A stretch of DNA of 64,000 nt from Candidatus Spongiisociaceae bacterium (GTDB lineage: Bacteria > Actinomycetota > Acidimicrobiia > Spongiisociales > Spongiisociaceae), in the NCBI GenBank assembly GCA_965202665.1, contig OZ241841.1, positions 1,184,001-1,248,000 of the forward strand. Reading direction: 5' to 3'. How positions within the stretch are numbered: position 1 is the stretch's first letter; each line of letters begins with the position of its first letter. The notes beneath the pieces were generated by a model. The model searched no databases and had not been told where the DNA came from. It worked only from the letters and a program-made list of their open reading frames with translations. A program made the position numbers and the translations under genes. Positions 30,803 through 48,767 of the stretch are shown piece by piece.

Positions 30803-30884
30803 AACGGCTTCCCGCCCGGTCCGGTTTCCCCGGGGCAAAGCAGTCCCCCCGGGGAAGATGGCAGGGGGATTCTGACCGTCCCGG

Positions 30885-31274
30885 TCAGACCTCTTTGGAT
30901 TTTTCCTCCATTTCCTGAATGAGGGCCTGTTCCCGGGCGCGCCGTTTGCGGCGGGTGTCGCCCCTGTTCGTCCACCACAGTGCCAAATATTCACGTATCA
31001 CCTGCGGGGTGCTCATCCCCGCCCACCGGACCAAATGCTCCGCCGTGACCGGGGCTTTGTCCTTGTACCAAACATTCGACAATTCGGACAGCGGGCGACC
31101 TTCCCGTTCGGCTCGGTCCCACACCCGTTTGGCTTCCTCGGCCCGCCGCACCCGCCTAAGAAGCTGCGAAGGTATCCCGGTGACATTCAAAAACCAGATC
31201 CAGGCGGTAAACAACACCATAGCGGCTATAAACGACCAGTACACCGCCAACACCCAAGCAGAAAATTGTTCCAT
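30885..31274 (-). CDS. Hypothetical protein with an N-terminal TM helix
   Basis: AAGGAGG RBS just before the ATG; hydrophobic N-terminus. Confidence 0.6.
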   Translation of the reverse strand: MEQFSAWVLAVYWSFIAAMVLFTAWIWFLNVTGIPSQLLRRVRRAEEAKRVWDRAEREGRPLSELSNVWYKDKAPVTAEHLVRWAGMSTPQVIREYLALWWTNRGDTRRKRRAREQALIQEMEEKSKEV

Positions 31275-31537
31275 TTATCCTCCTTAAGTCCTTAGAGTGA
31301 TGCGCGACCCAGCCCCCGGAAGCGGAGACCGGAACGGTTCGAAAGGGATTACCCCTAAACCGCGGGGGCGGAGTGGTTTCCGCCGCTGTCGCTCCTCCTT
31401 GTGACCTATGTTTACCCACGACGCAACCCGCGCCGTTGAACCTACATATGTCAATATAAGGAACTTTTCGAAAAAAAACAACCCCTTTTTCGCCAATTTC
31501 GCCGGAACGCGAAAAAAATCTTTAGCAAGCCGGTTAC

Positions 31538-32308
31538 TCAGCCGCCGCGGCGGGGAAGGGCGCGGGTGGCGGGGTCTATAACATGCAGGTCAGGCAAAGT
31601 GTCAGCGGCTAAAACAGCGGGGCGGGCCCGGTTGGAAGGAGTCACAATCAGAACAGCCTCCATCGAGGCGCAACACGAGTGGGACGGCCCGCCGCATGCA
31701 AATCGGAGAGAACCCGGGTCGCCATCACCGCGAACGGCAACTGCGGATCCTTCATCATCAACAACGCCGGGAGAGCCCCCGCGTCTGACGGCCGGTGGCG
31801 CACAAATCGAACAGAACCCCCACCGCGAGCGGCGCGAACGGTAACTGCTGGGTCTGATTGACCAGGATGAATTCCCTTCCCCCCCCCCCCGCTTCTACCT
31901 GCGACGCGGGATCACCCGCGTCTGCTGACCTGCCGCCATCGTATGCAAATCCGGAAGCCGCCCCGTCGCCAACACCCCCGCCCTCGCCATATTCGACGGA
32001 CCCGTCACCATCAACCCCATCGCCGCTGGGGAACGACCCGGCACGCCTGCTGGGTTCCCACCCCGCAGAGATCGCTGATGACCCCGGTTGCGAGAGTCCC
32101 GAAGACCGCCTTGTTGGAAGGACAGGTGACGAGAATTCCCCAACCCCCCCCCCCGTTACCTCCGGCGCGTCACCGCCCTCGTCGGTTGCGCCGGGCCCCT
32201 CGCGCACAGATCCGGCAACAGATCCGCCGCCAGCACCCCGAACACCGACATCCCCGACGGACTCGGAATCAGAATCGCCGTCTCGCGAAAACCCTTGCCC
32301 CCCCCCCC
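31538..32308 (-). repeat. Array C: six ~125-bp TRD-tip cassettes with three poly-G tracts (32298-32308 G11, 32144-32154 G11, 31879-31890 G12)
   Basis: Cassette peptides AILIPSPSGMSVFGVLAADLLPDLCARGPAQPTRAVTRRR*, GILVTCPSNKAVFGTLATGVISDLCGVGTQQACRVVPQRRWG*, GLMVTGPSNMARAGVLATGRLPDLHTMAAGQQTRVIPRRR*, FILVNQTQQLPFAPLAVGVLFDLCATGRQTRGLSRRC*, ALLMMKDPQLPFAVMATRVLSDLHAAGRPTRVAPRWRLF*, AVLIVTPSNRARPAVLAADTLPDLHVIDPATRALPRRGG*. Confidence 0.88.
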
Positions 32309-35300
32309 TAACGGAATTTAGGTCCGGCATTGCGTCGGACGCAAACGCAGTGTCAGATGTCCCCCTACCTGAACTGTTGGAAAAAGATATCGCCTCATCA
32401 ACTCTCTCCGCAGGAAACATCTTAGATATAGTTCGAACCGATGAAAGAATCAAGTCATCCTCATACAACCACAACTTTGTGAAAGGCCGATACAACACCT
32501 CCCGAATACGCCTCTCGTCAAACACAAGTCTCCTACCTTTCTTCAAAGTAGCCTTCAAAGCACCAGTCCATTTTATGGCACTCAGCGGAGAATCAAGCGT
32601 AGACTCTTCAGCAAAGGTTTCACCATAAATTTCCACACGAGCCAACACATCATTGTATTCTTCAATAAGACGTTGAACCTTTATCTCCAATCGTTCTCTG
32701 CTAAAAGAATATACGTAAGTATCAAGATTAGTGGCCAAACCCAACGCGTGAGAATGAACAGCGGCATTTCGATGTTTCTTAACACCGCATATTGGTAAAA
32801 GCTCCTCAAAGGTGCCATCAGACAGATTCACCCAATCATGCTTTGGGGTTACGGGTACTTCTTCTAAATCAGGATTAGTTATATCTTCCATTTCTTCTAG
32901 CCACTGCCATTTTTCCTCTCTGCTATAGTAATCTGGCACCTGAGCATAAAATAGTGAGGCGGGCACTCCTATTCTTTTAGTCGGATTTCTAACTAAAAAG
33001 GATATTTGAACACCGCTACGAGAGCCGCCTTTTCCACTTATTGCATCAAATAACACATCACCTTCCTTAGCTCGCTCTTCTCCTGATTTATAAGCATTAC
33101 CCCGTAAGTTAACAACATAGATAGATGTAAAATCGTCCCTTACTGCAGCCCTGGCTCCAGCCAAAGAAGGGCCGTCTGTCAAAGAATTAGGGTGCACCAA
33201 GCCAATAATAGAAGGGTGGTCTCCATGCAAAATTCTATCAGAGCACCAACGCAAAGCTTTGATATATAAATTTTGTCCAGCCTTGCCAATACCACGGCAG
33301 GTAATCTCCTTATGTTTAGCTCCGTACGTGTCAGAAACTCGATCACTGATAACAGGATATTCTAGCTTGGTAGTGTCGTCACCTGCTTGCTTAGCACCAG
33401 CCGACCAGGGGGGGTTAGCTAAAATTACAGTCATCGGAGTACTATCCTGTTCATATCGACCTTGGATATTTTCTCTGAAAGTATCAAGTTCCTCCTGCTT
33501 CGGGCTACTGAGGAAAGTATCAGTTAGTACTATTTTTGTATAAGGCTGATATATCACTTCTTTCTCAAGTCTTTCGGAGTCTCGGGAATGCTTTGCTTCC
33601 TCGATTTTGATAGCTGCTATATAGTAGGCCAATAGAATAAACTCGTTAGCATGTAGTTCATTTTCATACTTGCGGTCCAAATCTTCATAACTGATTAGAT
33701 AGTTATCATCCTCGTCCTTCATTTCAATTAGACGCGCTAGGTAAGTACCAGTACCAGCGAAAGGGTCTAAAATGTGTAGATTTTCGCTCCCAATGGACCT
33801 CCCGAACTCTTTCTGGCAAATGGCGGCTGCCGAACGGATCATGAAGTCCACTATCTGTACCGGTGTATACACAATCCCCACCCGTTTTACCGTTTCTTTC
33901 ATCGCTGACTGGAAGAATCCATCGTAGATTGCCCGTAGGATATCCACCTTTTCCGCGCTGGTTACCGCTCCGGCAAAAGCGGCCTCCATCTGCCGATAAG
34001 CGCGGGTCAGGGGTCGTAATTCCTCCTCAAATGACACCTTCAACGCCTGGAAGGTTTCAAGAAATCTTTCTATCTCTTGACTGACTGGATTCTGTTTGGC
34101 GAAGCCGCTACCAGCCAACATAACATCAAACACCGGGATGGTCACCACATGCTGGGCGATCATCTCCTGCGCTTGAGCGGAGGCGACATGATCACCAATA
34201 GAATCACGAATGCCCGCCAAAAACCTTTGAAAGGCATCCTTAGCAGGACCACCCTCAGCAATCAGGTTATTTATACGGGTCTGCACCTGACGGCAAATGT
34301 CCGCCGCCCGCTCACCCCAGCGGGGATACATATGCTTGTCGCCGACGATTTCCACCACCTTGGAGGCGATTTCTTGGTTGAGTTGGAACTGCAACTGTTG
34401 TTGCACCCTCTTGCCATTTCCTTCATCAACTCCCGGTCCAACCGGGAAGGAGCACACTCGCAACGGAGCGTTCTTCGCCCAGGCGGAGGCGTTGCTGACG
34501 TAATACTCCATCCGGGAATCATGGGAGCGCAAAGCCCGCACTACCTCCCACACAGTATGAAAGTCGGAAGCTTCCAACTTCTTCTTCGGGTCGGCGTCCT
34601 CCGGAACCACCACCGGAATGATGATGTAACCCTTGCGTTTGCCGGGGGCGGTGCGCATCGCCCGGCCCACCGCCTGAGTGATATCCACCGTGGAAGTACG
34701 ACTGTTCAGAAATATAACCGCGTCCAAGCTAGGAACATCCACTCCTTCGGTGAGCACCCTCGCGTTACTGAGAATCCGGCACACCGGCCTCCCATCCCCC
34801 TCCGCTCTCACATCCCTCAGTTGCTCTAAAAGGTCGGTGCGTTCCGCGGCCGGAGTGGAACCGTCAATATGATTTACATCCAACCTCAGGAATTCTGAAA
34901 AATCCTTCCCCCCCCCCCCATCTCCAACCATGTTGCCCTTTTGCCGGGTCAGGGCATCCACCACTTTCGGCCACACCATGGCCGCCGTCTGTGAAGTGCG
35001 CACCAAGTTGGTGAAAGCGATAGCCGAACGGGCTGGCTCTCCGCCGTCGGCAAAAATCTGGCCGGGAAACCGACCCGGTAAAACCTCGGTGGTGGCGGGC
35101 GTTGCCAGGGCATCCCAGCATCCGGCCAGCTTCACCGCATCATCCAAAGCTAGATTAGTAGTTTCATGCACCAAAACCTCATGGGACCACCCAGCGTTGG
35201 CTAGGGACTGCATATAGGCCTCTTCCGTAGCGGTTATTACCAGCACCTCGTAGTCGGACAGGTAGCCGTCTTCAACCGCCTCACTGAACTCCATCTCGTA

Positions 35301-36506
35301 AAACCGCTCCCCAAAAGTCGCCGTGTCGTCCATGCTGTAGGAATCCCCTTCGAAACCGGGGGCCTCTATCTTCTTCCTCTGCCTAGCCGTAAAAACACGC
35401 GGAGTGGCCGTCATATATAAACGTTTGCCGCCCCGGATGTGGGCGTCTTCGTGCACTATGCGGAACGGGGACACCCCCAAACCTTCTTTGGATTCTTCTA
35501 TGCCGGTGGTGCGGTGGGCTTCATCGCAGATGATCAAATCAAACCCCCACCCCTCCGCGGCCCGGTTTTGCGCTTCGGCAATTCTGGGGGAGGACTGATA
35601 CGTGGAAAACACCACCTGCATCGCATCCCCCGGCACCGGCTTCGCCAACTCTTTAGCCAACCGCGCCGGGTCGGTGGTTACCGGAATAGCCAACTCCGTT
35701 AAATCACCGGCCGTGTCCGCCTGCGCCGAGCCTTTCCGCCCCGCCGTGGTGTCAGAGCACACCCCCAGATAACGCAACGGCATCTCCCGTTGCCGTGACC
35801 ACTCCCGCATCGTCTGCCCAATCAACGCAATCGACGGCACCAAATACAACACCCGGCCACCCAAACCGGCCACCTTCTCCGCCGCCCGTAACGCCACCAA
35901 CGACTTACCCGTCCCACACGGCAAAATCAACTGCCCCCGATCCACATCCCGAAACTTCTCCGCAATATCCCGCACCGCGTCCTGCTGAAAACCATGCAAC
36001 CGATGCTTAGGAGCCGGTGCGATCTCCAGCAGGTCGGGGGTTTCCGCGAACTCCCGCCAGTCATCCACCCACCGGTCCATCTCACTGGTATGCAACACCT
36101 CGCACCGCGGCTCCGCCTTACGCAACTTCGCCAACCCCACCTGGGAAACCCTGGCCGTCGCCACCAACAGGCGAGAAGCGAAATCAGCCGTCCCCGACGC
36201 CCCCAGGAAACTGTCCACCCCGGCGGTGGAAACCTCCGTAGCCCAAAACTTGCACTGGATAGCGCACAACCCGCCCCCGTAAGCCGGAGTTTGCCGGGCC
36301 ACAATATCAACCCCAATGTCCCGCCCGTACCCCCGTTCTTCCCGCTCCGGCCACTCACCCCACAACCACACCTCCTCAAAACGCTCCCGACCATACTCAC
36401 CCGGATGAGCCCGCAACGCCCCCGCCACCAACCGCTCAAACCGCCGCCCCGCCCTCCACGGATCATCCCCCCCAAAACCCCCCAACACCCCATCCAAAAA
36501 CGGCAT
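31758..36506 (-). CDS. Split Type ISP R-M enzyme copy C; as assembled it reads through to cassette 4
   Basis: DIGVDIVA...AIQCK, LPCGTGKS, DEAHRTTG, TEGVDVP, DPFAGTG, ANPPW, YRPFTK; lacks the constant C-terminal domain; internal G12 at 34908-34919. Confidence 0.9.
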   Translation of the reverse strand: MPFLDGVLGGFGGDDPWRAGRRFERLVAGALRAHPGEYGRERFEEVWLWGEWPEREERGYGRDIGVDIVARQTPAYGGGLCAIQCKFWATEVSTAGVDSFLGASGTADFASRLLVATARVSQVGLAKLRKAEPRCEVLHTSEMDRWVDDWREFAETPDLLEIAPAPKHRLHGFQQDAVRDIAEKFRDVDRGQLILPCGTGKSLVALRAAEKVAGLGGRVLYLVPSIALIGQTMREWSRQREMPLRYLGVCSDTTAGRKGSAQADTAGDLTELAIPVTTDPARLAKELAKPVPGDAMQVVFSTYQSSPRIAEAQNRAAEGWGFDLIICDEAHRTTGIEESKEGLGVSPFRIVHEDAHIRGGKRLYMTATPRVFTARQRKKIEAPGFEGDSYSMDDTATFGERFYEMEFSEAVEDGYLSDYEVLVITATEEAYMQSLANAGWSHEVLVHETTNLALDDAVKLAGCWDALATPATTEVLPGRFPGQIFADGGEPARSAIAFTNLVRTSQTAAMVWPKVVDALTRQKGNMVGDGGGGKDFSEFLRLDVNHIDGSTPAAERTDLLEQLRDVRAEGDGRPVCRILSNARVLTEGVDVPSLDAVIFLNSRTSTVDITQAVGRAMRTAPGKRKGYIIIPVVVPEDADPKKKLEASDFHTVWEVVRALRSHDSRMEYYVSNASAWAKNAPLRVCSFPVGPGVDEGNGKRVQQQLQFQLNQEIASKVVEIVGDKHMYPRWGERAADICRQVQTRINNLIAEGGPAKDAFQRFLAGIRDSIGDHVASAQAQEMIAQHVVTIPVFDVMLAGSGFAKQNPVSQEIERFLETFQALKVSFEEELRPLTRAYRQMEAAFAGAVTSAEKVDILRAIYDGFFQSAMKETVKRVGIVYTPVQIVDFMIRSAAAICQKEFGRSIGSENLHILDPFAGTGTYLARLIEMKDEDDNYLISYEDLDRKYENELHANEFILLAYYIAAIKIEEAKHSRDSERLEKEVIYQPYTKIVLTDTFLSSPKQEELDTFRENIQGRYEQDSTPMTVILANPPWSAGAKQAGDDTTKLEYPVISDRVSDTYGAKHKEITCRGIGKAGQNLYIKALRWCSDRILHGDHPSIIGLVHPNSLTDGPSLAGARAAVRDDFTSIYVVNLRGNAYKSGEERAKEGDVLFDAISGKGGSRSGVQISFLVRNPTKRIGVPASLFYAQVPDYYSREEKWQWLEEMEDITNPDLEEVPVTPKHDWVNLSDGTFEELLPICGVKKHRNAAVHSHALGLATNLDTYVYSFSRERLEIKVQRLIEEYNDVLARVEIYGETFAEESTLDSPLSAIKWTGALKATLKKGRRLVFDERRIREVLYRPFTKLWLYEDDLILSSVRTISKMFPAERVDEAISFSNSSGRGTSDTAFASDAMPDLNSVRGGGQGFSRDGDSDSESVGDVGVRGAGGGSVAGSVREGPGATDEGGDAPEVTGGGVGEFSSPVLPTRRSSGLSQPGSSAISAGWEPSRRAGSFPSGDGVDGDGSVEYGEGGGVGDGAASGFAYDGGRSADAGDPASQVEAGGGGREFILVNQTQQLPFAPLAVGVLFDLCATGRQTRGLSRRC

Positions 36507-37207
36507 TACCGCTGATCTTCCAACGAGGGGGGCAGGCCGGCGATTATCTCCGCCGAACGGACGCTCACATAAACCAACCGCCGCAAATGGCGAATCAACT
36601 CATACGGATCCTTCTCCCACCGCCACCACCCATTCGGATCATCAGTGATGCCAGACGGCTTATCATGCTTATGCCGCAGACTGTCGATCGCCCAATCCAA
36701 CGGCGACCGGCCCGACACCGTATACTCCTGAGCCCGCTCCGGGATGCCGACCAACCGGCACCGCTCGTTGATATGCAACTCGGTGAGGTCTTTCTTCCAT
36801 TCACCGTCCTCGTCCTTGACTTTGTTCCACCGCATCTGTTTCTGAATCCGGTAGGCCTTCTGGTCAGCCCCCTGGTCGGGGAAACCGTCCACCAAAACAT
36901 CCACTCCCTCATACTCAGGACAGTTTTCGTATCCGATGTGCAAATCCATCAGTTCCCGCCCCGCCACCCGGAAGGCCTCAAAATCAGCGGCCAAAGGCAC
37001 ACGGGGCAGATTGCGTTGCAAATCGTTGCGGTAGCGTTTCCGCCAATCGGGGGCGTGCATCACCCCGTACAGATACTCCCAAATGTCGTCCTTGGTAATG
37101 GAAGGGTCCTCATAGCGGGTTTGGAACTCGCTCAGACACCAGTCGGTGATGTTGTCGGTGTCCTCCGTCATACCCTCCAAATCCAAGTCCAAACCCTGAT
37201 CCATCAT
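36506..37207 (-). CDS. Stand-alone Type ISP C-terminal domain (copy 2)
   Basis: DNITD...ITKDDIWEYLYGVMHAPDWRKRYRNDLQRNLPRVP...AGRELMDLHIGYE...VSGRSPLDW aligns with the last ~230 aa of 7756-12591; TAATG overlap with copy C; likely start MMDQ at 37207. Confidence 0.88.
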   Translation of the reverse strand: MMDQGLDLDLEGMTEDTDNITDWCLSEFQTRYEDPSITKDDIWEYLYGVMHAPDWRKRYRNDLQRNLPRVPLAADFEAFRVAGRELMDLHIGYENCPEYEGVDVLVDGFPDQGADQKAYRIQKQMRWNKVKDEDGEWKKDLTELHINERCRLVGIPERAQEYTVSGRSPLDWAIDSLRHKHDKPSGITDDPNGWWRWEKDPYELIRHLRRLVYVSVRSAEIIAGLPPSLEDQR

Positions 37208-37252
37208 TGCGGCGGCCTTCCCTTCTCCCAACCCCACAAAGGGGAGTACTCT

Positions 37253-37281
37253 ATTCTACCCGGCGTTTCCGCGCCCGCCAA
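37253..37281 (-). promoter_or_regulatory. Candidate sigma70-type promoter for the C-domain/large-gene operon
   Basis: TTGGCG-N17-TAGAAT on the minus strand; the counterpart upstream of 43595 is TTGGCG-N18-TAGGAT. A second candidate, TTGTTG-N17-TATATT, lies further upstream. Confidence 0.4.
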
Positions 37282-37559
37282 ATTTTTCGCCTTCTCTAGC
37301 CCACCCTCCCACCCCCCGCCCGCCCACCCGAAAATATAAAGGGTTTTTTCGGTTTCAACAAGGGGGTCGTTTTCGGGATATGACAAAATCCCTGGTAGAA
37401 GGGCTCTTTAGGGCTAAGAATATTTTTCGCGAGGCGGGTGCTGGGTCGGGACATTTTGCGCCTCGTAAAGGAGAAGGGCCTTTTTGGATTTGGAATATGT
37501 TTCGCGAGGTGGGATTCCGGAAGCAAACACCTCAGCCGGGGCGGAGCCAAACTTCTCCC

Positions 37560-37969
37560 CCGATCTCTGTCGCAGGCAAGAGGGGAGGACGCGGACAACG
37601 GAGTCGCGGGCATATAACCCGATTCTCGTTTCCGGCAATTTCTGTCACAAGCAAGGCAGGACAGGACGGCGGGGGGCGCAGGCATACCATCCAAATTCCC
37701 ATTCCTGATATTTCCTACCACAAACGGAAGGGAACACGAACAGCAGGGTCCGCAGGCATATCGTCCGGTTCTCGTTTCTGGTTTTTCCCCTCACAAGCGA
37801 GGGAGGACACGAACGGCGGGGGGCGCAGGCATACCATCCAAATTCCCATTCCTGATATTTCCTGTCACAAGCGAGGAAGGGCGCGGGCGGCGGGGGCGCG
37901 GGCATATCATCCGATTCTCGTTTCCGATATTTCCTACCAAGAGCGGGGGAGGGCGCGGGTGGCGGGGTC
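37560..37969. repeat. Degenerate tandem repeat, ~73-bp unit, 5-6 copies
   Basis: Units start CGC(A/G)GGCATA at about 37605, 37677, 37751, 37824 and 37897; units 2 and 4 share cgcaggcataccatccaaattcccattcctgatatttcct. Confidence 0.85.
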
Positions 37970-38700
37970 AATTACGTGCAGGTCGGGCAAGGCGTCAGTG
38001 GCTAAAACGGCCGGGCGGGAACGGTTGGAGGGAGCCACGATCAGAATCGCCTCCATCGAGGCGCAACACGGGTGGGGCGGCCCGCCGCATGCAAATCGGA
38101 GAGAATCCGGGTCGCCATCACCGCGAACGGCAACTGCGGATCCTTCATCATCAACAACGCCGGGGGAGCCCCCGCGTCTGGCGGCCGGTGGCGCACAAAT
38201 CGAACAGAACCCCCACCGCGAGCGGCGCGAACGGTAGCTGCTGGGTCTGATTGACCAAGATGAATTCCCTTCCCCCCCCCCCCGCTTCTACCTGCGACGC
38301 GGTATCACCCGCGTCTGCTGACCTGCCGCCATCGTATGCAAATCCGGAAGCCGCCCCGTCGCCAACACCCCCGCCCTCGCCATATTCGACGGACCCGTCA
38401 ACATCAACCCCGTCGTCGGGGAACGACCCGGCACGCCTGCTGGGTTCCCACCCCGCAGAGATCGCTGATGACCCCGGTTGCGAGAGTCCCGAAGACCGCC
38501 TTGTTGGAAGGACAGGTGACGAGAATTCCCCAACCCCCCCCCCCGTTACCTCCGGCGCGTCACCGCCCTCGTCGGTTGCGCCGGGCCCCTGGCGCACAGA
38601 TCCGGCAACAGATCCACTGCCAGCACCCCGAACACCGACATCCCCGACGGACTCGGAATCAGAATCGCCACCTCGTGAAAACCCTTGCCCCCCCCCCCCC
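37934..38700 (-). repeat. Array B: six TRD-tip cassettes with three poly-G tracts (38688-38700 G13, 38534-38544 G11, 38272-38283 G12)
   Basis: Same six cassettes in the same order as array C; cassette stops at 38546, 38404, 38288, 38151, 38041 and 37934. Confidence 0.88.
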
Positions 38701-41700
38701 TTGATTGAGGTCTGGCACCACCCCAGCGGCGGACAGATTATCAGACGCACCCCTCATAGAACCACTCGCCACATCAATCCCCTCAACCTCCGCCTCACGG
38801 GGGAACATCGCGGACACCGTTTTCACCGACGAAAGAATCAGGTCATCCTCATACAACCACAACTTCGTATAAGGCCTATACAACACCTGCCTAATACGAC
38901 CCTCATCAAACACAATACGCCTGCCCTTCCGCAAAGACCCCTTCAACGTATCCGTCCATTTAATCGCATCCAACCTAGTATTTGCAGTAACTTCCCCAAT
39001 GTCCTCCCCATGTATCTCTACTAAATCCAATGTCCTGTCATAAATATCGATCAGCCGCTTAACCTTTTGAATAAGCATTTCACGGCTGAACGAATAAACA
39101 TATGTGTCACAAGTAGTTGTTACACCACGAGCATGCTTAGCGACAGCTACTTGCCCATTTTCCTTTTGAATATCACAAACCGCAAGCAGATTATCAAATG
39201 TTCCATCCGACAGATTTACCCAATCGTGGCGGGGATTTACCGGAACTTCCTCTAGCTGTGAGCTCGTCACATCCCAAATTTTTTCCAACCATTCCCACTT
39301 ATCATCCAAACTCATATAATCAGGAACTTGCGCATAATGAAGGTTGGCAGGCTGGCTGATGTCTTTAGATGGATTTCTTACCAGAAAAGTAATTTGAACA
39401 CCGTTGCGTGTTCCTTCGCCAAAAACGGTGTCTCCTTCTCGTTGCCTTTCATCACCCTGTTTAAAGGCGTTGCCTCGCAGATTAATCACATAGATGTCAG
39501 TGAACTCATCCCGTAACGTTCCCCGAACACCGGCCAACGAAGTGCCGTCGGCCAAAGAGTTAGGATGGACAAGCCCGACAATAGCGGGGTGGTCGCCGCG
39601 TTGCGTATTCGGTAAAATCCGATCCGTGCACCAACGCAAGGCCTTCACATACAGATTACCCATAGCGTTGCCTCCGGGCGACTGTCCTACCACTTCTTTA
39701 TGTTTGGCTCCGTAGGTTTTCTCCACCCGTAGGCCAACATCGTGATATTCAAGATTAGGGTTGTCATCGCCCGCCAACTTCTGACCGGATGACCAAGGCG
39801 GATTGGATATTATCACAGTCATCGGAGTAGCATCCTGTTCAAGACGAACTCGTATATTGTCGCCTAAAACATCAAACCCTTCCTGCTCAGGACTAGCCAA
39901 CAACGTATCAGTAAACACTATTTTTTTGAAAGGGTCGTATTTGACTTTACTATCAGACTTTTCTCCATCCCGAAAATGCTTAGATTCTTCTATTTTGAGA
40001 GCGGCGATGTAGTAGGGTAACAGGATAAACTCGTTGACATGCAGTTCTTGTTGATATTTGCGGTCCAGATCTTCAGTGCTTATAAGGTAGTTGCCATCTT
40101 CATCTTTCATCTCTATCAGACGAGAAATGAAAGTCCCGGTGCCAGCGAAAGCATCTAAGATATGTATATTTTCACTACCTATGGATCTCCTGAACTCTTT
40201 TTGACAGATAGCAGCCGCTGAGCGTATCATAAAGTCCACTATCTGCACCGGAGTGTATACTATCCCAACCCGCTTCACCGTTTTTTTCATAGCCGCCTGG
40301 AAAAACCCCTCATAGATTTCTCGCAGAATATCCACCTTTTCGACACTAGATACCGCCCCGGCGAATGCGGCCTCCATTTGTCTGTAGGCGCGGGTTAGAG
40401 GTCTTAGCTCCTCCTCGAACGATACATTCAACTTACGGAATTTTTTGAGTAGCCTTTCTATTTCTTTGCTTACTGGATTCTGCTCGGAGAAACCGCTTTC
40501 AGCCAGCATTACATTGAACACCGGGATGGTGACCACATGCTGAGCGATCATCTCCTGAGCTTGCTCTAAAGTAACGTGATTCCCAACCGACTGACGGATG
40601 CCTTTCAAGAAACGTTGGAAGGCATTCTCGGCAGGGCCGCCTTCGGCTATCAGGTGGTTGATACGGGTTTGCACCTGGCGGCAGATGTCAGCCGCGTGCA
40701 CTCCCCAGCGGGGATACATTTGCTTGTCGCCGATGATTTCCACCACTTTGGATGCAATTTCTTGGCTGAGTTGGAACTGCAACTGATGTTGCACCCGCTC
40801 GTCGTAACCTTCTTCTTCAACATCCCGGCCCAACCGGCAAGTGACCACCCGTAGCGGAGCGTTTTTCTTCCAGGCGGAGGCGTTGCTGACGTAATGTTCC
40901 ATCCGGGAGTCGTGGGAACGCAAAGCCCGCACCACCTCCCACACAGTCTGAAAGTCGGAGGCTTCCAGCATCTTCTGCGGGTCGGCGTCCTCCGGGACTA
41001 CTACAGGAATAATGATGTAGCCTTTGCGTTTGCCGGGGGCGGTGCGCATCGCCCGGCCCACCGCTTGGGTTATATCCACCGTGGAAGTGCGGCTGTTCAG
41101 AAAAAGCACCGCATCCAAGCTGGGAACATCCACCCCTTCGGTTAGCACCCGGGCGTTGCTGAGAATCCGGCACACCGGCCTCCCGGATTCACCCCCGCCC
41201 CCTGCCCTCCCCCTCAGTTGCTCTAGCAGATCAGTCCGTTCCGCGGCCGGAGTGGAACCGTCAATATGATTTACATCCAACCGCAAAAATCTATTTTCGC
41301 CACCCCCCCCCCCGTTCCCTACCAAGTCTCCCCTTTGCCGAGTCAGGGCGCCTACCACTTTCGGCCACACCATGGCAGCCGTCTGCGAGGTGCGCACCCG
41401 GTTGGTGAAAGCGATGGCCGAACGGGCAGGCTCGCCGCCCTCGGGGAAAATCTGGCCGGGAAACCGACCCGGCAAAACCCCGGTGGTGGCGGGAGTGGCC
41501 AGGGCATCCCAGCATCCAGCCAGTTTCACCGTATCGTCCAAAGCCAAATTGGTGTCCTCGCGCACTATCATCTCGTGAGCGAAATCGGCGTTGGCCAAAG
41601 ACTGCAAATAAGCCTCGGCGGAGGCGGTGATAACCAGCACCTCGTAGTCGGACAGATAACCGCCTTCCACCGCCTCGCTGAACTCCATTTCATAAAACCG

Positions 41701-42906
41701 TTCCCCGAAAGTCGCCGCGTCGTCCATGCTGTAGGAGTCCCCTTCGAAACCGGGGGCCTCTATCTTCTTCCTCTGCCGAGCGGTGAACACACGAGGGGTG
41801 GCCGTCATATACAAACGCTTGCTACCCCGGATGTGGGCGTCTTCGTGCACTATGCGGAACGGGGACACCCCCAGCCCTTCTTTGGATTCTTCGATGCCGG
41901 TGGTGCGGTGCGCCTCATCGCAGATAATCAAATCAAACCCCCACCCCTCCGCGGCCCGCTGTTGCGCCTCGGCAATTTTGGGGGAGGACTGATACGTGGA
42001 AAACACCACCTGCATCGAATCCCCCGACACCGGCTTAGACAACTCTTTAGCCAGCCGCGCCGGGTCGGTGGTTACCGGAATAGCCAACTCAGTTAAATCA
42101 CCGGCTATGTCCGCCTGCGCCGAGCCCTTCCGCCCCGCCGTGGTATCCGAGCACACCCCCAGATAACGTAGCGGCATTTCCCGTTGCCGGGACCATTCCC
42201 TCATCGTCTGCCCAATCAACGCAATCGACGGCACCAAATACAACACCCGGCCACCCAACCCCGCCACCTTCTCCGCCGCCCGCAACGCCACCAACGACTT
42301 ACCCGTCCCACACGGCAAAATCAACTGCCCCCGATCCACATCCCGAAACTTCTTCGCAATATCCCGCACCGCGTCCTTCTGAAACCCATACAACCGATGC
42401 TTAGGAGCCGGTGCGATCTCCAGCAGGTCGGGGGTTTCCGCGAACTCCCGCCAGTCATCCACCCACCGGTCCATCTCACTGGTATGCAACACCTCGCACC
42501 GCGGCTCCGCCTTACGCAACTTCGCCAACCCTGTCCGGGAAACCCGCGCCGTCGCCACTAACAGGCGCGATGCAAAATCAACCGTGCCCGACGCGCCCAA
42601 GAAACTGTCCACACCGGCGGTGGAAACCTCCTTTTCCCGGAACTTGCATTGAATGGCGCACAACCCGCCCCCGTAAGCCGGGGTCTGGCGGGCCACAATA
42701 TCAACCCCGATATCCCGCCCGTATCCCCGTTCTTCCCGTTCCGGCCACTCACTCCACAACCACACCTCCTCAAACCGCTCCCGCCCGTACTCACCCGGAT
42801 GAGCGCGCAACGCACCCGCCACCAACCGCTCAAACCGCCTCCCCTGAACCACCGACTTCGGATCATCCGCCACCAAACCTCGCAACACCTCCTGCAAATA
42901 CGGCAT
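38659..42906 (-). CDS. Split Type ISP R-M enzyme copy B; as assembled it ends in its own tip (PDLNQGGGGARVFTRWRF*)
   Basis: Same motif set (AIQCK, LPCGTGKS, DEAHRTTG, DAFAGTG, SNPPW); close paralog of copy C; internal G11 at 41303-41313. Confidence 0.9.
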   Translation of the reverse strand: MPYLQEVLRGLVADDPKSVVQGRRFERLVAGALRAHPGEYGRERFEEVWLWSEWPEREERGYGRDIGVDIVARQTPAYGGGLCAIQCKFREKEVSTAGVDSFLGASGTVDFASRLLVATARVSRTGLAKLRKAEPRCEVLHTSEMDRWVDDWREFAETPDLLEIAPAPKHRLYGFQKDAVRDIAKKFRDVDRGQLILPCGTGKSLVALRAAEKVAGLGGRVLYLVPSIALIGQTMREWSRQREMPLRYLGVCSDTTAGRKGSAQADIAGDLTELAIPVTTDPARLAKELSKPVSGDSMQVVFSTYQSSPKIAEAQQRAAEGWGFDLIICDEAHRTTGIEESKEGLGVSPFRIVHEDAHIRGSKRLYMTATPRVFTARQRKKIEAPGFEGDSYSMDDAATFGERFYEMEFSEAVEGGYLSDYEVLVITASAEAYLQSLANADFAHEMIVREDTNLALDDTVKLAGCWDALATPATTGVLPGRFPGQIFPEGGEPARSAIAFTNRVRTSQTAAMVWPKVVGALTRQRGDLVGNGGGGGENRFLRLDVNHIDGSTPAAERTDLLEQLRGRAGGGGESGRPVCRILSNARVLTEGVDVPSLDAVLFLNSRTSTVDITQAVGRAMRTAPGKRKGYIIIPVVVPEDADPQKMLEASDFQTVWEVVRALRSHDSRMEHYVSNASAWKKNAPLRVVTCRLGRDVEEEGYDERVQHQLQFQLSQEIASKVVEIIGDKQMYPRWGVHAADICRQVQTRINHLIAEGGPAENAFQRFLKGIRQSVGNHVTLEQAQEMIAQHVVTIPVFNVMLAESGFSEQNPVSKEIERLLKKFRKLNVSFEEELRPLTRAYRQMEAAFAGAVSSVEKVDILREIYEGFFQAAMKKTVKRVGIVYTPVQIVDFMIRSAAAICQKEFRRSIGSENIHILDAFAGTGTFISRLIEMKDEDGNYLISTEDLDRKYQQELHVNEFILLPYYIAALKIEESKHFRDGEKSDSKVKYDPFKKIVFTDTLLASPEQEGFDVLGDNIRVRLEQDATPMTVIISNPPWSSGQKLAGDDNPNLEYHDVGLRVEKTYGAKHKEVVGQSPGGNAMGNLYVKALRWCTDRILPNTQRGDHPAIVGLVHPNSLADGTSLAGVRGTLRDEFTDIYVINLRGNAFKQGDERQREGDTVFGEGTRNGVQITFLVRNPSKDISQPANLHYAQVPDYMSLDDKWEWLEKIWDVTSSQLEEVPVNPRHDWVNLSDGTFDNLLAVCDIQKENGQVAVAKHARGVTTTCDTYVYSFSREMLIQKVKRLIDIYDRTLDLVEIHGEDIGEVTANTRLDAIKWTDTLKGSLRKGRRIVFDEGRIRQVLYRPYTKLWLYEDDLILSSVKTVSAMFPREAEVEGIDVASGSMRGASDNLSAAGVVPDLNQGGGGARVFTRWRF

Positions 42907-43595
42907 TACCGCTGGCCTTCCAACGAGGGGGGCAGGCCGGCGATTATCTCCGCCGAACGGACGCTCACATAAACCAACCGCCGCAAATGGCGAATCAACT
43001 CATACGGATCCTTCTCCCACCGCCACCACCCATTCGGATCATCAGTGATGCCAGACGGCTTATCATGCTTATGCCGTAGGCTGTCGATGGCCCAATCCAA
43101 CGGCGACCGGCCCGACACCGTATACTCCTGAGCCCGCTCCGGGATGCCAACCAACCGGCACCGGTCGTTGATATGCAACACGGTGCGGTCAACCTTCCCC
43201 TTGCCGTCCTCGCCTTTGGCCCGCTCCCACCGCATCTTCTTCTTAATCCGGTAGTCCTCCGGGTCGGGGGAACCGTCCACCACAACTTCCACCCCTTCAT
43301 ATTCGGGACAGGTCTCGTATCCGATGTGCAAATCCATCAGTTCCCGCCCCGCCGCCCGGAAGGCCTCAAAGTCGGCGGCCAAAGGCACCCGGGGCAAATT
43401 GCGTTGCAAATCGTTGCGGTAGCGTTTCCGCCAGTCGGGGGCGTGCATCACCCCGTACAGATACTCCCAAATGTCATCTTTGGTAATGGAAGGGTCCTCA
43501 TAGCGGGTTTGGAACTCGTTCAGACACCAGTCAGTGATGTTGTCGGTGTCCTCCGTCATACCCTCCAAGCCCAAACCCTGGTCCTGGCCCATCAT
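42906..43595 (-). CDS. Stand-alone Type ISP C-terminal domain (copy 1)
   Basis: Near-identical to 36506-37207; AGGAGG RBS; TAATG overlap with copy B. Confidence 0.88.
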   Translation of the reverse strand: MMGQDQGLGLEGMTEDTDNITDWCLNEFQTRYEDPSITKDDIWEYLYGVMHAPDWRKRYRNDLQRNLPRVPLAADFEAFRAAGRELMDLHIGYETCPEYEGVEVVVDGSPDPEDYRIKKKMRWERAKGEDGKGKVDRTVLHINDRCRLVGIPERAQEYTVSGRSPLDWAIDSLRHKHDKPSGITDDPNGWWRWEKDPYELIRHLRRLVYVSVRSAEIIAGLPPSLEGQR

Positions 43596-43889
43596 TCCGG
43601 CAAACCCTCCCTCCTCCTACGCCCCCCGCCCGGGGGAACGCCCTATCCTACCCCGGCGTTTCCGCACCCGCCAAATTTTTTTCAAACCTGCTCGAGCCCA
43701 CCCTCCCACCCCCCGCCCACCCACCCGAAAATATAAAGCACTTTTTCGGTTTCAACAAGGGGGTCGTTTCCGGAGGATGGCAAAAGCCCTGCTAGAAGGG
43801 CTTTTTTGGCTAAGAATATTTTTCGCGAGGCGGGATTCTAAAACAAACACACCATTCAGGGCTAGAACAATCTACTCCTCCGACCTCGT

Positions 43890-44506
43890 TCAAAAACGGG
43901 GAAGGGCGCGGGTGGCAGGGTCTATCACGTGCAGGTCGGGCAAAGTGTCTGTTGCTAAAACGGCCGGGCGAGCCCGGTTGGAAGGAGCCACAATCAGAAT
44001 CGCCTCCACCGAGGCAGAACCCGGGTGGGGCGGCCCGACGCGAGCACCGCGAACGGCAACCGCTGGGGCTGATTGGCCAAGACCGATCCCACCCGCTACC
44101 TCCAGCGCAGTATCACCCGCGTCTGCTGACCGGCCGCCATCGTATGCAAATCCGGAAGCCACCCCGTCGCCAACACCCCCGCCCTCGCCATATTCGACGG
44201 ACCCGTAAACATCAGCCCCGTCGCCGGGGAACGACCCGGCAGGCCTGCTGAGTTCCCACCGCGCAGAGATCGCTGATGACCTGGGCTGCGAGAGTCCCGA
44301 AGACTGCCTTGTTCGACGGACAGGTGATGAGAATTCTTGGCTCCCCCCCCCCCCGCTACCTCTAGCGCGGTATCACCCTCGTCTGTTGCGAACCCTTGAT
44401 CGCCGCCAGGTCCGTCAGCCATGCCGCCGCCAGGGCCTGGAAAATCATATTGTTGCCGTTGCTGATCAGAATCACCTTCGCGTGACGACCCTTGCCCCCC
44501 CCCCCC
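43890..44506 (-). repeat. Array A: four intact TRD-tip cassettes plus one deleted remnant, two poly-G tracts (44495-44506 G12, 44343-44354 G12)
   Basis: VILISNGNNMIFQALAAAWLTDLAAIKGSQQTRVIPR*, ILITCPSNKAVFGTLAAQVISDLCAVGTQQACRVVPRRRG*, LMFTGPSNMARAGVLATGWLPDLHTMAAGQQTRVILRWR*, a cassette 4/5 chimeric remnant, AILIVAPSNRARPAVLATDTLPDLHVIDPATRALPRF*. Confidence 0.85.
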
Positions 44507-47500
44507 TAACTGAGTTAAGATCTGGTTGCACATCGTGCGCGATGGGGGTATCGACTGTACCTCGACCGGATCCGCTGGTGAAAGAAACCGCTTCAGTGAT
44601 TTCGCTATGGGGGAACAGTCGGGATGCGCTTCTCACCGATGATAAAATACGGTCATCCTCGTACAACCATAGTTTAGTAAACGGCCGATACAGTACTTGG
44701 CGGATACGAGCAGGGTCAAATACTATTTTTCTGCCTCTTCGCAGTGAATCTTGGATACGGGCAATGCTCCGTAGATATAGTGAATCCTCCACCAACTTCT
44801 CAATCCATTGTTTAGTTGGATGAGTATGGTTTCTTACTTGCAGAAGATACGCATCGTATTCGTCTAATAAATCTCTTATTTTATCTTCCAGGGCTTGCCG
44901 ATTGTATGAGTAGGCCATGAAATCACAGGCGGTAGCTATTCCCAGCGCACTCTTTTGAGAAACTGCTGGTTCTTGATTTGCACCTACAGTGCATATAGGC
45001 ACCATTTTTTCATATGTTCCATCAGACAGGTTTACCCAATCATGTTTTGAGGTCACCGGTACTTCTTTCAATTGATCACTGGTTATATCGCCTAGAAACT
45101 CTAGCCAGTCCCACTTTTGATTTAGTTTTAGGTAATCCGGCACTTGAGCGTAACGGAGAATGGCAGGCCCTTTCAAGTCCTTGCGAGGATTTCGAACCAA
45201 AAATGTTATCTGTGTCCCAAGCATGGCACCAGCTCCGAACACTTTGTCTCCTTCTTTTTGCCATTCTTCACCCGCTTTTTTGGCATTACCTCGTAGGTTA
45301 ACTACATAGATATCAGTAAATTCATCACGAAGAGATGCTCTCATTCCAGCTAAACTGGTCGCATCAGTTAAAGAATTGGGGTGAACAAAACCAATCATTT
45401 TCCCTCGGTTAGCAGGTTCTTTATCTAGTTGATCGGTTGCCCATCTTATAGCCTGTACAAATAAGTTTCCAGCGGCATTTCCACCAAGTCTTAGACCAAG
45501 AGCTTTATGAGATTTATTATAAGTTTCCCTAACTCGCTCTGCTACTTTAGGGAACTGTAATTTGCCAACTTGTCCAGTTCTATTGGCCCCAGAACCCCAA
45601 GGTGGGTTACTAAAAATAATATCCACAGGAGTCTGATCCAAACGGGCCGCTCTTCCAACATTACCCTCAGCATCATCTAATTCGCGTTGTTGACCCCGTC
45701 CACCCCCCAAATTGCCGGAAAGGAAAGTATTCTGCAAAACCAGCCCCTCCCAGGGTTGGTAGTCAGGATCCTGTTCATCACGCCGGTTAATTCTCTTTCG
45801 GTAAGTTTCCTCCACTTGGAGGGCGGAAACATAGTATGCGAGCATAACGATTTCTGATCCATGCATATTTTTCCATACATTCTCTAGCGCGTTGTCGGGT
45901 ACAATAGGTTTTCCATCCCTGCCAAAGGCATCTAGTAAACGCGTGGGGAAGGTACCGGTTCCACAGAACGGATCATAGAACTGAACATATTGATCAGAAA
46001 TATGAACACCAAATTCTTTTTCACAGATAGCGGCAGCCGATTTAATAATAAAATCAACTATTTGAATAGGTGTGTAGACTATACCAAGTTGTTTTATCGC
46101 GTTAGGCATAGCTTCCTTAAAGAATCCATCATATATTTCCCGAAGGACATCTACCTTTTTATCGGCATCTCCAGCTGCATCAAACACCTCTTTCATGCGA
46201 TCATAAGCTCGTTGCAGAGGTGCACAATCACCTTGAAAATTTATTCCCTGCATTTCCAGCGTTTTGCGAAGAGTGTCAATACGTCGACTAATAGGATTCA
46301 CCTGTGCAAAATGCCCGTGGAACATTGCATCGAAAACGGGAATAGTTACAATATGTTGAGCGACCATTTCTTCGGTACTATCGGGATCAACCTGACCACC
46401 CATTACCTTCCCTAACTCATAAACTAACTCTTCAAATGCTTGTTGACACACCGGATCGGTAAGAGAAGATTTTAGTCGCGAGCGAACGTCGGCGCAAACC
46501 TTTGCCGCCTGCTGACCCCATCGAGGCCACATTTTCTTGTCTCCAACTTTATCTACTATTACCGATGCCAACTGCTGGGTGAGTTGAAATCGCAACTGTT
46601 CCACTTCCCGTTGGGTTCGTTTGGTTTTTTTCCCATTGCCAATAACCCTTACATTGAACTTGCCTTTTAGCTGGCATATATCGGGGTCGGACACCCAATA
46701 GTCAACGCGGTCATCGTGCGATCGTAAAGCGCGAACAACGTTGGCTACGTTGGCGAATTCGCTTTGTGCAAGTTTCCGGTTAGGATCTTCTTCTTGCTCA
46801 TCTATCACAACGGGAATAACTATGTGCCCTTTAGTTTTGTGATCAGTGGTACGCATCGCCCGCCCTACCGCTTGAGTAATGTCTACTTCCGATGTTTTAG
46901 GATCTAAGAAAATAACCGCATCTAGGCCGGGAACGTCTACCCCTTCAGTTAGAACTTTCACATTTGTCAAAATCTCACAAATGGGCGATTCCGCATCCTC
47001 ATCTGTTGTCGGTGGTGCATTAGTAACAGTTCGCAACCGGCTTATACGTTTAGTGCGTTCCGCAGCGGGAGTATTGCCATCCACATGATTGACTTTTAAC
47101 TGAAGATAACGGTTAGGTTCTTCGTCAATAGCCGATTGGCGGGAAGCCAGCTCCGCCCATACCATGGCTACTTCTCGGCTTCGGGGAATTTTGTTAGCGT
47201 AAAGCAGGGCGGTACGGGTGGGCCACCCTAATTTTATATCTGTTTTTCCGGCAGGGCGGTGAGGGTCCACCTTTTCAGAATATGGTGTGGACAGGGCATC
47301 CCAAGCACCAGCTAATCGTACTCCATCGCTTAATGACAAGGCTGGCTCTCGCTCTCCAGTTTCAGGGTTTTTCTTACCTTGAGGTTCGTAACCCGGTATG
47401 TCCGCCCATTCCATACCTATATGATCGGAATGGGCCGCCTGCCATCGAAAGCCACGACTAGCTGCTACTACATGTATCTGATAGTCAGACAGAACCGGGC

Positions 47501-48767
47501 GACCATCCGTACGTAGGTTGATCTTCTCTGAAGTTTTACTATCAATCCTTTTACCATCCACAGCCTCCGCGAAAGACAGCTTATAGAAGACCGGCCCGAA
47601 CACACCTTCATCATCCATAGAATAAGATTGCCCATCATAATGCTTATTTTCTATACGACTCTTTTGATGTTCAGTAAAAACCCGGGGGGTAGCGGTCATA
47701 AAAAGCCTTTTGCGACAAGGGATTTGATCATTGCTCAAACCAGTCTGAAATAAGCTACCTTCAGTTTTGTTAATGCCGGTAGTTCGATGCGCCTCATCAA
47801 AAAATGCTAAATCGAACATAAACCCTGGAATAGATTTGATAGATTCTGCGACCATCGGTGACGACTGATATGTACAGAATACGGCTCGCGTCGTTCTCTT
47901 CGCAATGGGCTTTTTAAGAGCGATCGTTAGATGATTGGGATCAGTAGTTACAGGAGCAAATAGTTCGGTGAGCCGACGACGGTCTTCACGACCAACAGAA
48001 CTATCGGAACACACCGCCAAAAACTCTAGCGGCAGAGTTTTGTTGGCGGACCATTCTTTCATACTTTGATCCATCAATGCTAAAGAAGGTACTAGAAATA
48101 ATACAGTTGCTCCCCCCCCCCCCCGTTCCGTCGCCCATAACGAGACTAGCGTCTTTCCGGTACCACATGGCAAAATTAGCTGTCCTCGATCAAAGTCTCT
48201 AAACCCATTATATATTTTATCGATAGCGTCCCGTTGAAATGGATGCGGAGTTTTTGGATGGCTTCGGATAACTAACTTGTTAGGCTCGTCGATAAGAGTA
48301 CGCCAGTCTTCCACCCACCCGTCCATTTCAACAGTGTGCAGAACCTTCCCATCTCGATGGCGGTGTAATGCTTCCTCCCCTTTTCGAGAAACCGGAGCGG
48401 TGGCCACCAACAAAATAGACCGGAACAGATCCGATGAAGGGCGGGAATGTGTGATAAAACGGTCCACCGCTCTGGTAGATATCTCGTTGCGATGAAACTT
48501 GCACTGAACAGCGCACAGGCCGCCACCGTACGCATCGGTTTGCTCCGCCACCAAATCTATACCATCGTCGCCAGCCGCGTACCCGTGCCTCTCCCGATCC
48601 GGCCACTCCCCCCACAACCAAACGTCCCGGAACCGATCCTTGCCCCATTCTCCCGGGTGGGCTAGAAAGGCGGCTTTAACTAATTCCTCAAAGTCACGAC
48701 CTTTTTCCACGGCGGTTGCCGTACGGTCTTCTATCATCTCCAATGCCTCAGTCAAATAACCCATCAT
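44472..48767 (-). CDS. Split Type ISP R-M enzyme copy A (divergent); ends PDLNSVRGGGARVVTRR*
   Basis: AAGGAGG RBS before MMGY; DDGIDLVA...AVQCK, LPCGTGKT, DEAHRTTG, DPFCGTG, SNPPW; internal G13 at 48112-48124. Confidence 0.9.
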   Translation of the reverse strand: MMGYLTEALEMIEDRTATAVEKGRDFEELVKAAFLAHPGEWGKDRFRDVWLWGEWPDRERHGYAAGDDGIDLVAEQTDAYGGGLCAVQCKFHRNEISTRAVDRFITHSRPSSDLFRSILLVATAPVSRKGEEALHRHRDGKVLHTVEMDGWVEDWRTLIDEPNKLVIRSHPKTPHPFQRDAIDKIYNGFRDFDRGQLILPCGTGKTLVSLWATERGGGGATVLFLVPSLALMDQSMKEWSANKTLPLEFLAVCSDSSVGREDRRRLTELFAPVTTDPNHLTIALKKPIAKRTTRAVFCTYQSSPMVAESIKSIPGFMFDLAFFDEAHRTTGINKTEGSLFQTGLSNDQIPCRKRLFMTATPRVFTEHQKSRIENKHYDGQSYSMDDEGVFGPVFYKLSFAEAVDGKRIDSKTSEKINLRTDGRPVLSDYQIHVVAASRGFRWQAAHSDHIGMEWADIPGYEPQGKKNPETGEREPALSLSDGVRLAGAWDALSTPYSEKVDPHRPAGKTDIKLGWPTRTALLYANKIPRSREVAMVWAELASRQSAIDEEPNRYLQLKVNHVDGNTPAAERTKRISRLRTVTNAPPTTDEDAESPICEILTNVKVLTEGVDVPGLDAVIFLDPKTSEVDITQAVGRAMRTTDHKTKGHIVIPVVIDEQEEDPNRKLAQSEFANVANVVRALRSHDDRVDYWVSDPDICQLKGKFNVRVIGNGKKTKRTQREVEQLRFQLTQQLASVIVDKVGDKKMWPRWGQQAAKVCADVRSRLKSSLTDPVCQQAFEELVYELGKVMGGQVDPDSTEEMVAQHIVTIPVFDAMFHGHFAQVNPISRRIDTLRKTLEMQGINFQGDCAPLQRAYDRMKEVFDAAGDADKKVDVLREIYDGFFKEAMPNAIKQLGIVYTPIQIVDFIIKSAAAICEKEFGVHISDQYVQFYDPFCGTGTFPTRLLDAFGRDGKPIVPDNALENVWKNMHGSEIVMLAYYVSALQVEETYRKRINRRDEQDPDYQPWEGLVLQNTFLSGNLGGGRGQQRELDDAEGNVGRAARLDQTPVDIIFSNPPWGSGANRTGQVGKLQFPKVAERVRETYNKSHKALGLRLGGNAAGNLFVQAIRWATDQLDKEPANRGKMIGFVHPNSLTDATSLAGMRASLRDEFTDIYVVNLRGNAKKAGEEWQKEGDKVFGAGAMLGTQITFLVRNPRKDLKGPAILRYAQVPDYLKLNQKWDWLEFLGDITSDQLKEVPVTSKHDWVNLSDGTYEKMVPICTVGANQEPAVSQKSALGIATACDFMAYSYNRQALEDKIRDLLDEYDAYLLQVRNHTHPTKQWIEKLVEDSLYLRSIARIQDSLRRGRKIVFDPARIRQVLYRPFTKLWLYEDDRILSSVRSASRLFPHSEITEAVSFTSGSGRGTVDTPIAHDVQPDLNSVRGGGARVVTRR

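Follow-up and report, generated by a model that had tools for sequence, protein, structure and literature searches.

A putative two-gene Type ISP enzyme with frame-selected recognition tips and a target recognition domain completed in trans

Large and small genes of the locus

Type ISP restriction-modification enzymes are defined as single chains, and they methylate one strand, translocate with ATP and cleave upon collision. On the minus strand of a 64,000-nucleotide stretch of DNA from Candidatus Spongiisociaceae bacterium (contig OZ241841.1, positions 1,184,001 to 1,248,000; this whole stretch is called the window below), between 31.5 and 48.8 kb, Pfam and PDB matches revealed the Type ISP domain order of Mrr nuclease, SF2 helicase, coupler, gamma N6-adenine methyltransferase (MTase) and target recognition domain (TRD), with the TRD divided over two genes. 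Large and small genes alternate in the order large A, small1, large B, small2, large C, and the 3' part of each large gene holds an array of alternative C-terminal segments, here called tips, of which tip 0 is the first. The genes and the features directly attached to them were as follows.

44472..48767, minus strand: large gene A, 1431 amino acids (aa) from the ATG at 48767, ending in tip 0
48112..48124, minus strand: internal tract of A, G13, at codon 215
43596..43834, minus strand: leader of small1, with a promoter-like TTGAAA-16-TATTTT site at 43755-43728 and a GGAGG site
42906..43595, minus strand: small1, 229 aa, core helices plus guide subdomain of a Type ISP TRD
38659..42906, minus strand: large gene B, 1415 aa as assembled, ending in tip 0
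41303-41313, minus strand: internal tract of B, G11
37208..37438, minus strand: leader of small2, with a promoter-like TTGAAA-16-TATTTT site at 37358-37331
36506..37207, minus strand: small2, 233 aa, with its ATG at 37207
31758..36506, minus strand: large gene C, 1582 aa as assembled
34908-34919, minus strand: internal tract of C, G12

Gene A encodes the Mrr nuclease, SF2 helicase, coupler, N6-adenine MTase and first half of the TRD in that order, and the catalytic motifs were found in A, B and C alike (nuclease D..QxK, Walker A, DEAH, and MTase motifs I and IV, motif IV being NPPW). C was 78% identical to B; A, which has no small gene upstream, was 44-46% identical to B and C. The assembled end of C comprises an incomplete tip 0, a Gly/Ser-rich read-through of ~130 aa and then tip 4. 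The internal tract in the helicase part of each large gene is likely an on/off switch. The MTase-TRD halves at 44500-46000 and 38700-40000 have a GC content of 45-47%, compared with 59-66% in the start of B, the small gene and the array, and are probably swapped-in modules.

The two small genes, 87% identical to each other, correspond to the C-terminal ~230 aa of a Type ISP enzyme, as the initial annotation of this DNA had proposed: they matched only positions 165-339 of PF18135 (Type_ISP_C, a 342-position model), and A, B and C matched positions ~5-152. The whole genome gave six PF18135 matches, comprising one intact enzyme, three N-parts and two C-parts, so the annotated count of two C-part genes for three large genes was borne out, and none of the frame states described below fuses a large gene to a small gene. 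The intact enzyme (1611 aa; 7756-12591, plus strand) covers the whole PF18135 model, is ~40% identical to the small genes over their common part and carries a G13 tract at 8475 (codon 240), likely an on/off switch.

Coupling of each small gene to the next large gene by TAATG was also found as annotated, with 1-nucleotide overlaps between the small1 stop and the B ATG (42906) and between the small2 stop and the C ATG (36506). Each small gene has a ribosome-binding site of its own, a clear GGAGG 9-10 nucleotides before the ATG in small1 and a weaker GGAAGG in small2, and ~190 bp, including the promoter-like site, are common to both leaders; the description of the shared leader as AT-rich stood in a relative sense only (45-47% AT over 110 nucleotides, against 36% genome-wide). 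Small1 lies upstream of B and also downstream of the array of A. As a duplicated unit (33403-37438 / 39791-43834) spans the leader, the small gene and the start of the following large gene, and as the small gene is upstream of the large gene in each of the five nearest relatives (L041-L045), the local unit is leader, small gene, large gene and array, with A lacking a small gene of its own.

The split into two genes is real and conserved. Contigs of other runs (X1 and X2 from one sample, possibly the source, and X4 and X5 from another study) bridge the junctions at the end of A, the start of small1 and the TAATG, which speaks against the assembly artefact considered at annotation. A contig joint in runs X7 and X4 at 42891-48954, weak because its sides are short, suggests a strain with a B-like large gene directly after the upstream neighbour, without A and small1.

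Tip arrays and the position of the cut

The 3' part of each large gene contains two or three selector tracts of G11-G13, and the exit from each tract leads, in all three frames, either to a ~40-aa tip copy with a stop or to a stop-free run to the next tract. The resulting end states, five in A and seven each in B and C, give proteins of 1411-1656 aa.

43890..44594, minus strand: tip array of A, with tip 0 at 44475-44594; 5 end states
44365-44478, 44218-44340, 44099-44221 and 43893-44006, minus strand: further tips of A, each with a stop
44495-44506 (G12) and 44343-44354 (G12), minus strand: selector tracts of A
37934..38790, minus strand: tip array of B, tip 0 plus six tips; 7 end states
38549-38671, 38410-38532, 38291-38413, 38154-38267, 38050-38163 and 37940-38053, minus strand: the six tips of B
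38688-38700 (G13), 38534-38544 (G11) and 38272-38283 (G12), minus strand: selector tracts of B
31538..32400, minus strand: tip array of C, tip 0 plus six tips; 7 end states
32159-32281, 32020-32142, 31898-32020, 31761-31874, 31657-31770 and 31544-31660, minus strand: the six tips of C
32298-32308 (G11), 32144-32154 (G11) and 31879-31890 (G12), minus strand: selector tracts of C

The third tract of A has decayed, leaving a worn tip between tips 3 and 5 (44007-44125), which accounts for its five states compared with seven in B and C. Tract lengths differed between the assembly and contigs of individual runs: X2 had one additional base at both A tracts and X4 at the first, X1 had one additional base at the internal tract of A, and X7 had one base fewer at 38688. 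An invertible TRD shufflon was rejected as an explanation of the arrays, as all self-matches across 30000-50000 were direct and none inverted. Behind the array of B, at 37570-37970, lie degenerate direct repeats of ~75-150 bp, some frames of which are tip-like at the end and are possibly relics.

Both parts of the divided enzyme align to solved Type ISP structures. B matched LlaBIII (4XQK) over 33-1369 (E 1e-193) and small1 matched LlaGI over ~1394-1565 (E 2e-35); in the alignment to LlaGI structure 5FFJ, B extends to residue 1215 and small1 starts from 1230. Adding 164 to the 5FFJ index gives the LlaGI numbering used here, and reproduces H1368, G1372, Q1373, N1327 and R1329 as named in PMC4872093. 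The large genes stop at about LlaGI 1379 and the small gene matches from 1394, so that the cut falls after the 1347-1358 hairpin and the Loop VI segment, in agreement with the annotated split just after the cassette segment. Loop VI, the last recognition element named for LlaGI in that paper, reads base pair +3 through H1368, G1372 and Q1373, and the guide, which contacts the backbone only, leads DNA to the ATPase without contributing to target recognition (PMC4872093).

Small1, beginning past Loop VI, is without the base-reading loop; its conserved helices correspond to LlaGI 1395-1428, which stack against the core's central sheet. Aligned in this way, the small protein is conserved core helices plus guide; the 'constant C-terminal domain' of the initial annotation is not a single domain. 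A profile built from 60 tips gave LlaGI 1345-1379 as its only PDB match at E<=10, a weak one (E 0.2); a single tip as PDB query gave no relevant match, and four of the 60 tips matched PF18135 weakly. Variation among tips was greatest after an invariant D, at the positions of the LlaGI +3 contacts H1368, G1372 and Q1373.

Related loci, halfway forms and predicted pairing of the two parts

Seventy-eight loci were fetched from species genomes by likeness to small1. They were labelled mostly Acidimicrobiia, many from candidate taxa (Spongiisociaceae, Poriferisodalis, Poriferisocius, Aldehydirespiratoraceae), with six from Chloroflexota, and sponge metagenomes were among the runs containing the stretch in the window; no RNA run was listed there. 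The C-part was unfused in 76 of the 78, and 72 of these 76 had at least two tips in the locus, which gives the co-occurrence of stand-alone C-part genes with cassette arrays that the initial annotation had proposed as a check; the others comprised one single-tip locus (L078) and three without a visible partner. A set of 498 short relatives was left out of the evidence for stand-alone genes. Neither of the two intact loci had tips at the cut-off, and four of the surveyed loci are broken (L086, L106, L116, L118). The small gene follows the array in 43 loci, is upstream in tandem in 18 and divergent in 10, and the layout is mixed in two. The annotated move of the C-part upstream of the large gene is therefore one of three layouts rather than a general rule, and an upstream position as a requirement for the switch was rejected on the 43 loci with the small gene after the array.

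Frames were walked through 68 arrays, three of them from the window, leaving out repeat units divisible by 3. A profile-detected tip closes 310 of 341 end states. There were three states per array in 23, five in 22, six in one, seven in 21 and nine in one, and about 7 of the 68 would be expected to keep their longest path open once shuffled. The first repeat stands before all tips in 53 arrays and inside tip 0 in 15, as in the window, and repeat units of 1, 2, 4, 5 and 7 bases were found 101, 24, 12, 3 and 1 times. Among 63 assembled large genes, the end is a tip in 58, tip-0-like in three and neither in two; the tips lie 31-338 aa beyond the anchor, so both short and long states occur.

Beyond the small1 set, PF18135 was present in 5 of 200 genomes of the class and 31 of 300 of the phylum (own genome excluded), and none of the cases inspected from these genomes was a split locus with an array; eight odd ones (L132, L139-L145) had no array and proved to be fragments, contig ends, a frameshift or an intact gene. 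A plasmid search gave 227 matching records, below 60% identity. Split loci with arrays in Dehalococcoidia and Caldilineaceae (L088, L103, L107) are nested among Acidimicrobiia loci, which likely reflects transfer between phyla. A lone, strongly diverged small-like ORF (L021 6599-7285, minus strand; 228 aa, 40% identical to small1) with its own leader lies 7 kb from a split locus.

A halfway clade (L012, L020, L033, L127, P0125) has a repeat of CCGA, AGAGGGGC or CT units after tip 0. One frame reads via the array into the C-part, giving a single chain of 1714-1744 aa in P0125 and L020, and the other frames lead to one or two alternative tips, each with a stop. In the four halfway loci available as DNA, the C-part starts at an ATG that overlaps the stop of the last tip (ATGA) and has AAGGAG before it, and the N-terminus of this restarted C-part resembles that of the free small proteins. 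The halfway form is what truncated states that need a separately made C-part would give, and so supports such a need. Outside the halfway clade, in L119, L122 and L126, a poly-C on/off tract stands before or after the tip.

A careful tree was made from 48 rows chosen out of 124 (25 split, 4 halfway, 19 fused) plus two added. The split genes form one clade (100/99), which contains three fused proteins beside the after-array loci (99/98), and the halfway forms group with intact enzymes (97/93). One of the fused proteins, P0123, is likely a re-fusion because it keeps an array-type tip and the former start of the small protein. A first one-clade test (p 0.0001) was set aside as confounded by the three nested fused proteins; with these included, one origin of split and halfway forms was not rejected (p 0.375). 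The upstream layout as one clade gave p 0.165 and the split rows alone p 0.086, the groups for these tests having been chosen after a quick preliminary tree had been seen. Whether intermediate or convergent, the halfway forms support the logic of the system, not an order of events.

The small genes are under purifying selection, with dN/dS of 0.12-0.26 in 21 pairs of seven genes. Multimer structure prediction of A 885-1459 with small1 scored 0.85, compared with 0.02 for the best control; the mark set for this score was reached by 51 of 78 solved pairs and 2 of 108 mismatched pairs, contacts agreed by at least 89% between runs and partner pLDDT was at least 84. The predicted interface includes tip residues 1420-1459, the tip strand packing on the helices of the small protein. 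This pass probably rests on likeness to the solved LlaGI and LlaBIII. A repeat (G18 or AG repeats) lies within the small gene itself in four relatives, out of frame in L114 and L115 and in frame in L038 and L039; as a scan found no such tract inside the large gene of L114 and L115, on/off switching in these two loci seems to lie with the small gene. In L062, L063, L077, L086 and L108, poly-C or poly-G lies just upstream of the small gene.

Sharing of one constant part among several large genes, raised as a possibility in the initial annotation, is fairly probable from gene content. G231, G232 and G233 each have one locus with two intact large genes, both with an array, and a single intact small gene, and in G231 a decayed small-gene remnant stands before the second large gene. 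On the one contig holding L042 and L044, the small genes differ by a dN of 0.029 and their partners are B-like (78%) and A-like (69-77%); small1 and small2, too, are more closely related to each other than to any other small gene. Small genes follow the genome, not the partner, for which gene conversion could be an alternative cause.

Proposed mechanism, alternatives and known systems

We propose, with a probability of roughly 0.8, that the locus encodes a variable large subunit with frame-selected tips and a small protein that completes the TRD in trans. Tract length, altered by replication slippage, would pick the tip; bypassed cassettes, read in other frames, would become a flexible linker, at most ~300 aa long; and the picked tip would fold back onto the core of the TRD, take the place of an incomplete tip 0 if there is one, and set the base read at +3, perhaps also at +2, for methylation and cleavage together. 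Since no option lacks a stop, translation cannot run on from the chosen tip into the core helices and guide; the small protein would provide these in trans and pack on the tip. Carrying no recognition loop, it is likely interchangeable, and A would use small1 or small2. The upstream position and its own promoter-like leader likely free the small gene from a variable untranslated stretch, and would be optional. The annotated idea that stop-ended tips require a separate constant part gains from the 72 of 76 unfused loci with arrays, the halfway clade, the predicted complex and the small-gene repeats in four relatives. The locus departs from the single-polypeptide definition of Type ISP and yet likely works like such an enzyme.

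In its widest form the proposal, which we favour with some reserve, is a ternary decision tree set in overlapping frames, in which all repeat states would be productive and 3-9 specificities per gene would be reached without a recombinase. Division of the enzyme into a large subunit that varies and a small one that is constant and shared would have allowed this; three such genes plus on/off tracts could give this one locus up to 5x7x7 methylation states, and the system would have spread in sponge symbionts of two phyla.

Several observations count against this proposal. The tip-to-LlaGI match is weak by itself, and the tip profile mostly fails to detect the divergent tip 0 in the large genes of the window. 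The tract-length differences between runs may be due to library slippage. As the surveyed loci were fetched by small1 likeness and form one clade, 72 of 76 measures conservation, not independent events, and L078, split with a single tip and no repeat, indicates that a split can persist without an array. For the three fused proteins nested in the split clade, re-fusion is a possible reading of the tree. In other Type ISP clades of the same genomes (L120, L121, L123, L124 and L125), one tip is fused to the C-part and the other is stop-ended with no evident restart, a state that could work truncated, be complemented in trans or be off. The complex score is unable to tell which family member binds. 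When the last 447 aa of C were folded without an alignment, mean pLDDT was 35; with a 60-row alignment, which favoured the distal tip, and without the small subunit, the tips reached pLDDT 39-65, the linker was unfolded and the docking tip was not singled out.

An improbable alternative is that the large subunit alone binds and methylates, the small one serving only DNA steering, translocation and cleavage as a restriction toggle. The published role of the guide, steering without recognition, suits this, as do the stop-ended states of two-tip loci of other clades that lack an evident C-part restart and the on/off repeat within the small gene; however, the small protein also brings the conserved helices of the core sheet stack, and against these the tip strand packs in the predicted complex. 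Slightly less credence goes to a choice of tip by cassette recombination, or by transcriptional or ribosomal slippage giving a mixture of tips in every cell, the split itself being real. Long G or C runs can slip in transcription, and cassettes share sequence and array sizes vary from 3 to 9 states, so that recombination does shape the arrays. But units of 2, 4, 5 and 7 bases in the same places point to slippage in DNA, the read-through frames are open far above chance, assembled genes were found in many different states, and the copies in the self-comparison were only direct.

A larger share, though still a minority one, falls to the view that the split came first, through a nonsense change or separate control of the small gene, and that arrays came later, made possible by the free C-terminus, so that the split was a precondition rather than an adaptation; this concerns history only and is compatible with the proposed mechanism. 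L078 could be read as such a state, and the order is not fixed by the tree, as a single origin is not rejected and yet the best tree separates split and halfway forms. The halfway clade, however, has arrays while fused in one frame, showing that arrays can precede a full split, and the L078 tip is of array type and nested beside array-bearing L047 (100/99), which fits array loss. Gene decay or misassembly as the source of the small ORFs retains almost no probability: C-half-only matches elsewhere in Actinomycetota are fragments or contig ends, and some survey loci are broken, but here the same boundary recurs in dozens of genomes, with own starts and in three gene orders, dN/dS is low and contigs of two studies bridge the junctions. 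The conserved boundary and purifying selection in effect also rule out a pseudogene reading.

LlaGI (5FFJ) and LlaBIII (4XQK) have the same domains in the same order as the proposed enzyme, but in one chain; here the sequence is divided into two genes at a point between Loop VI and the core helices, and the Loop VI segment comes in 5-7 alternatives. Where R-M systems encode specificity in its own subunit (Type I, IIB), the gene for that subunit carries the base-reading elements, and small1, beginning past Loop VI, does not. Invertible hsdS shufflons such as SpnD39III, which use a recombinase and inverted repeats, also have several specificities per locus, whereas the cassettes here are direct, fixed in place and chosen by frame.

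Closest in mechanism is the switch of the Helicobacter pylori Type IIG enzymes Hpy99XIV (JHP1272) and HpyAXVI (HP1353-1354), in which one homopolymer tract is on/off and a second, poly-C, adds a C-terminal copy of a short recognition module. The copy takes the place of the regular module, a part of the TRD, and the two bases beside the methylated A change (PMC3936762). There, as here, an additional copy of a module for TRD recognition stands behind a repeat tract, but those enzymes, as described, have no helicase, one chain and two specificities, compared with a helicase, two genes and 5-7 states in the window, all three frames being used and tracts nested into a tree of 3-9 states. A second subunit would be needed here, unlike in the Type IIG case, because the module is internal to the TRD. 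In the H. pylori type of switch the module is the MmeI-type four-strand motif for the two bases beside the target A; the tips here map weakly (E 0.2) on LlaGI 1345-1379 with Loop VI. In phase-variable hsdS genes (NgoAV and the extended three-TRD hsdS of Mannheimia and Fusobacterium), repeat length shifts the frame and changes specificity rather than switching off (PMC7383803); by that source these are Type I, exchange whole TRDs and have two states per gene, and their separate subunit is the specificity subunit, here the constant part. The H. pylori HP0667-0669 locus (HpyAXVIII) is a frameshifted Type ISP in several ORFs, but its breaks, as given there, lie in the N-terminal part and not at repeats, with MTase and TRD in one ORF (PMC3936762).

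We found no report of a split or multi-tip Type ISP enzyme in the literature searched, with subscription journals, REBASE and supplements outside its scope, and nothing on either in the searched passages of a 2025 review (PMC12707154). A conserved two-gene Type ISP enzyme would mean that a TRD can be assembled in trans, and would mark where it can be cut. The published repeat-driven specificity switches compared here alternate between two states; with all three frames in use, the present one would reach as many as nine. Several hundred natural tips, 355 of which were scored, vary only at one ~40-aa module on a fixed scaffold, which would give an amino acid-to-base code at +2/+3, recognition at +2 being called unsolved in PMC4872093. 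The arrays also suggest that defence in uncultured sponge symbionts is strongly phase-variable, and such systems have probably been missed because automatic annotation sees a truncated gene and a hypothetical protein.

Around the locus, an RmuC-family gene (29732-30802, plus strand) faces the end of gene C. The genome as a whole contains 75 G or C tracts of at least 11, of which 23 lie in the spacer of TTGACA-polyG-TAGCGT-like promoters.

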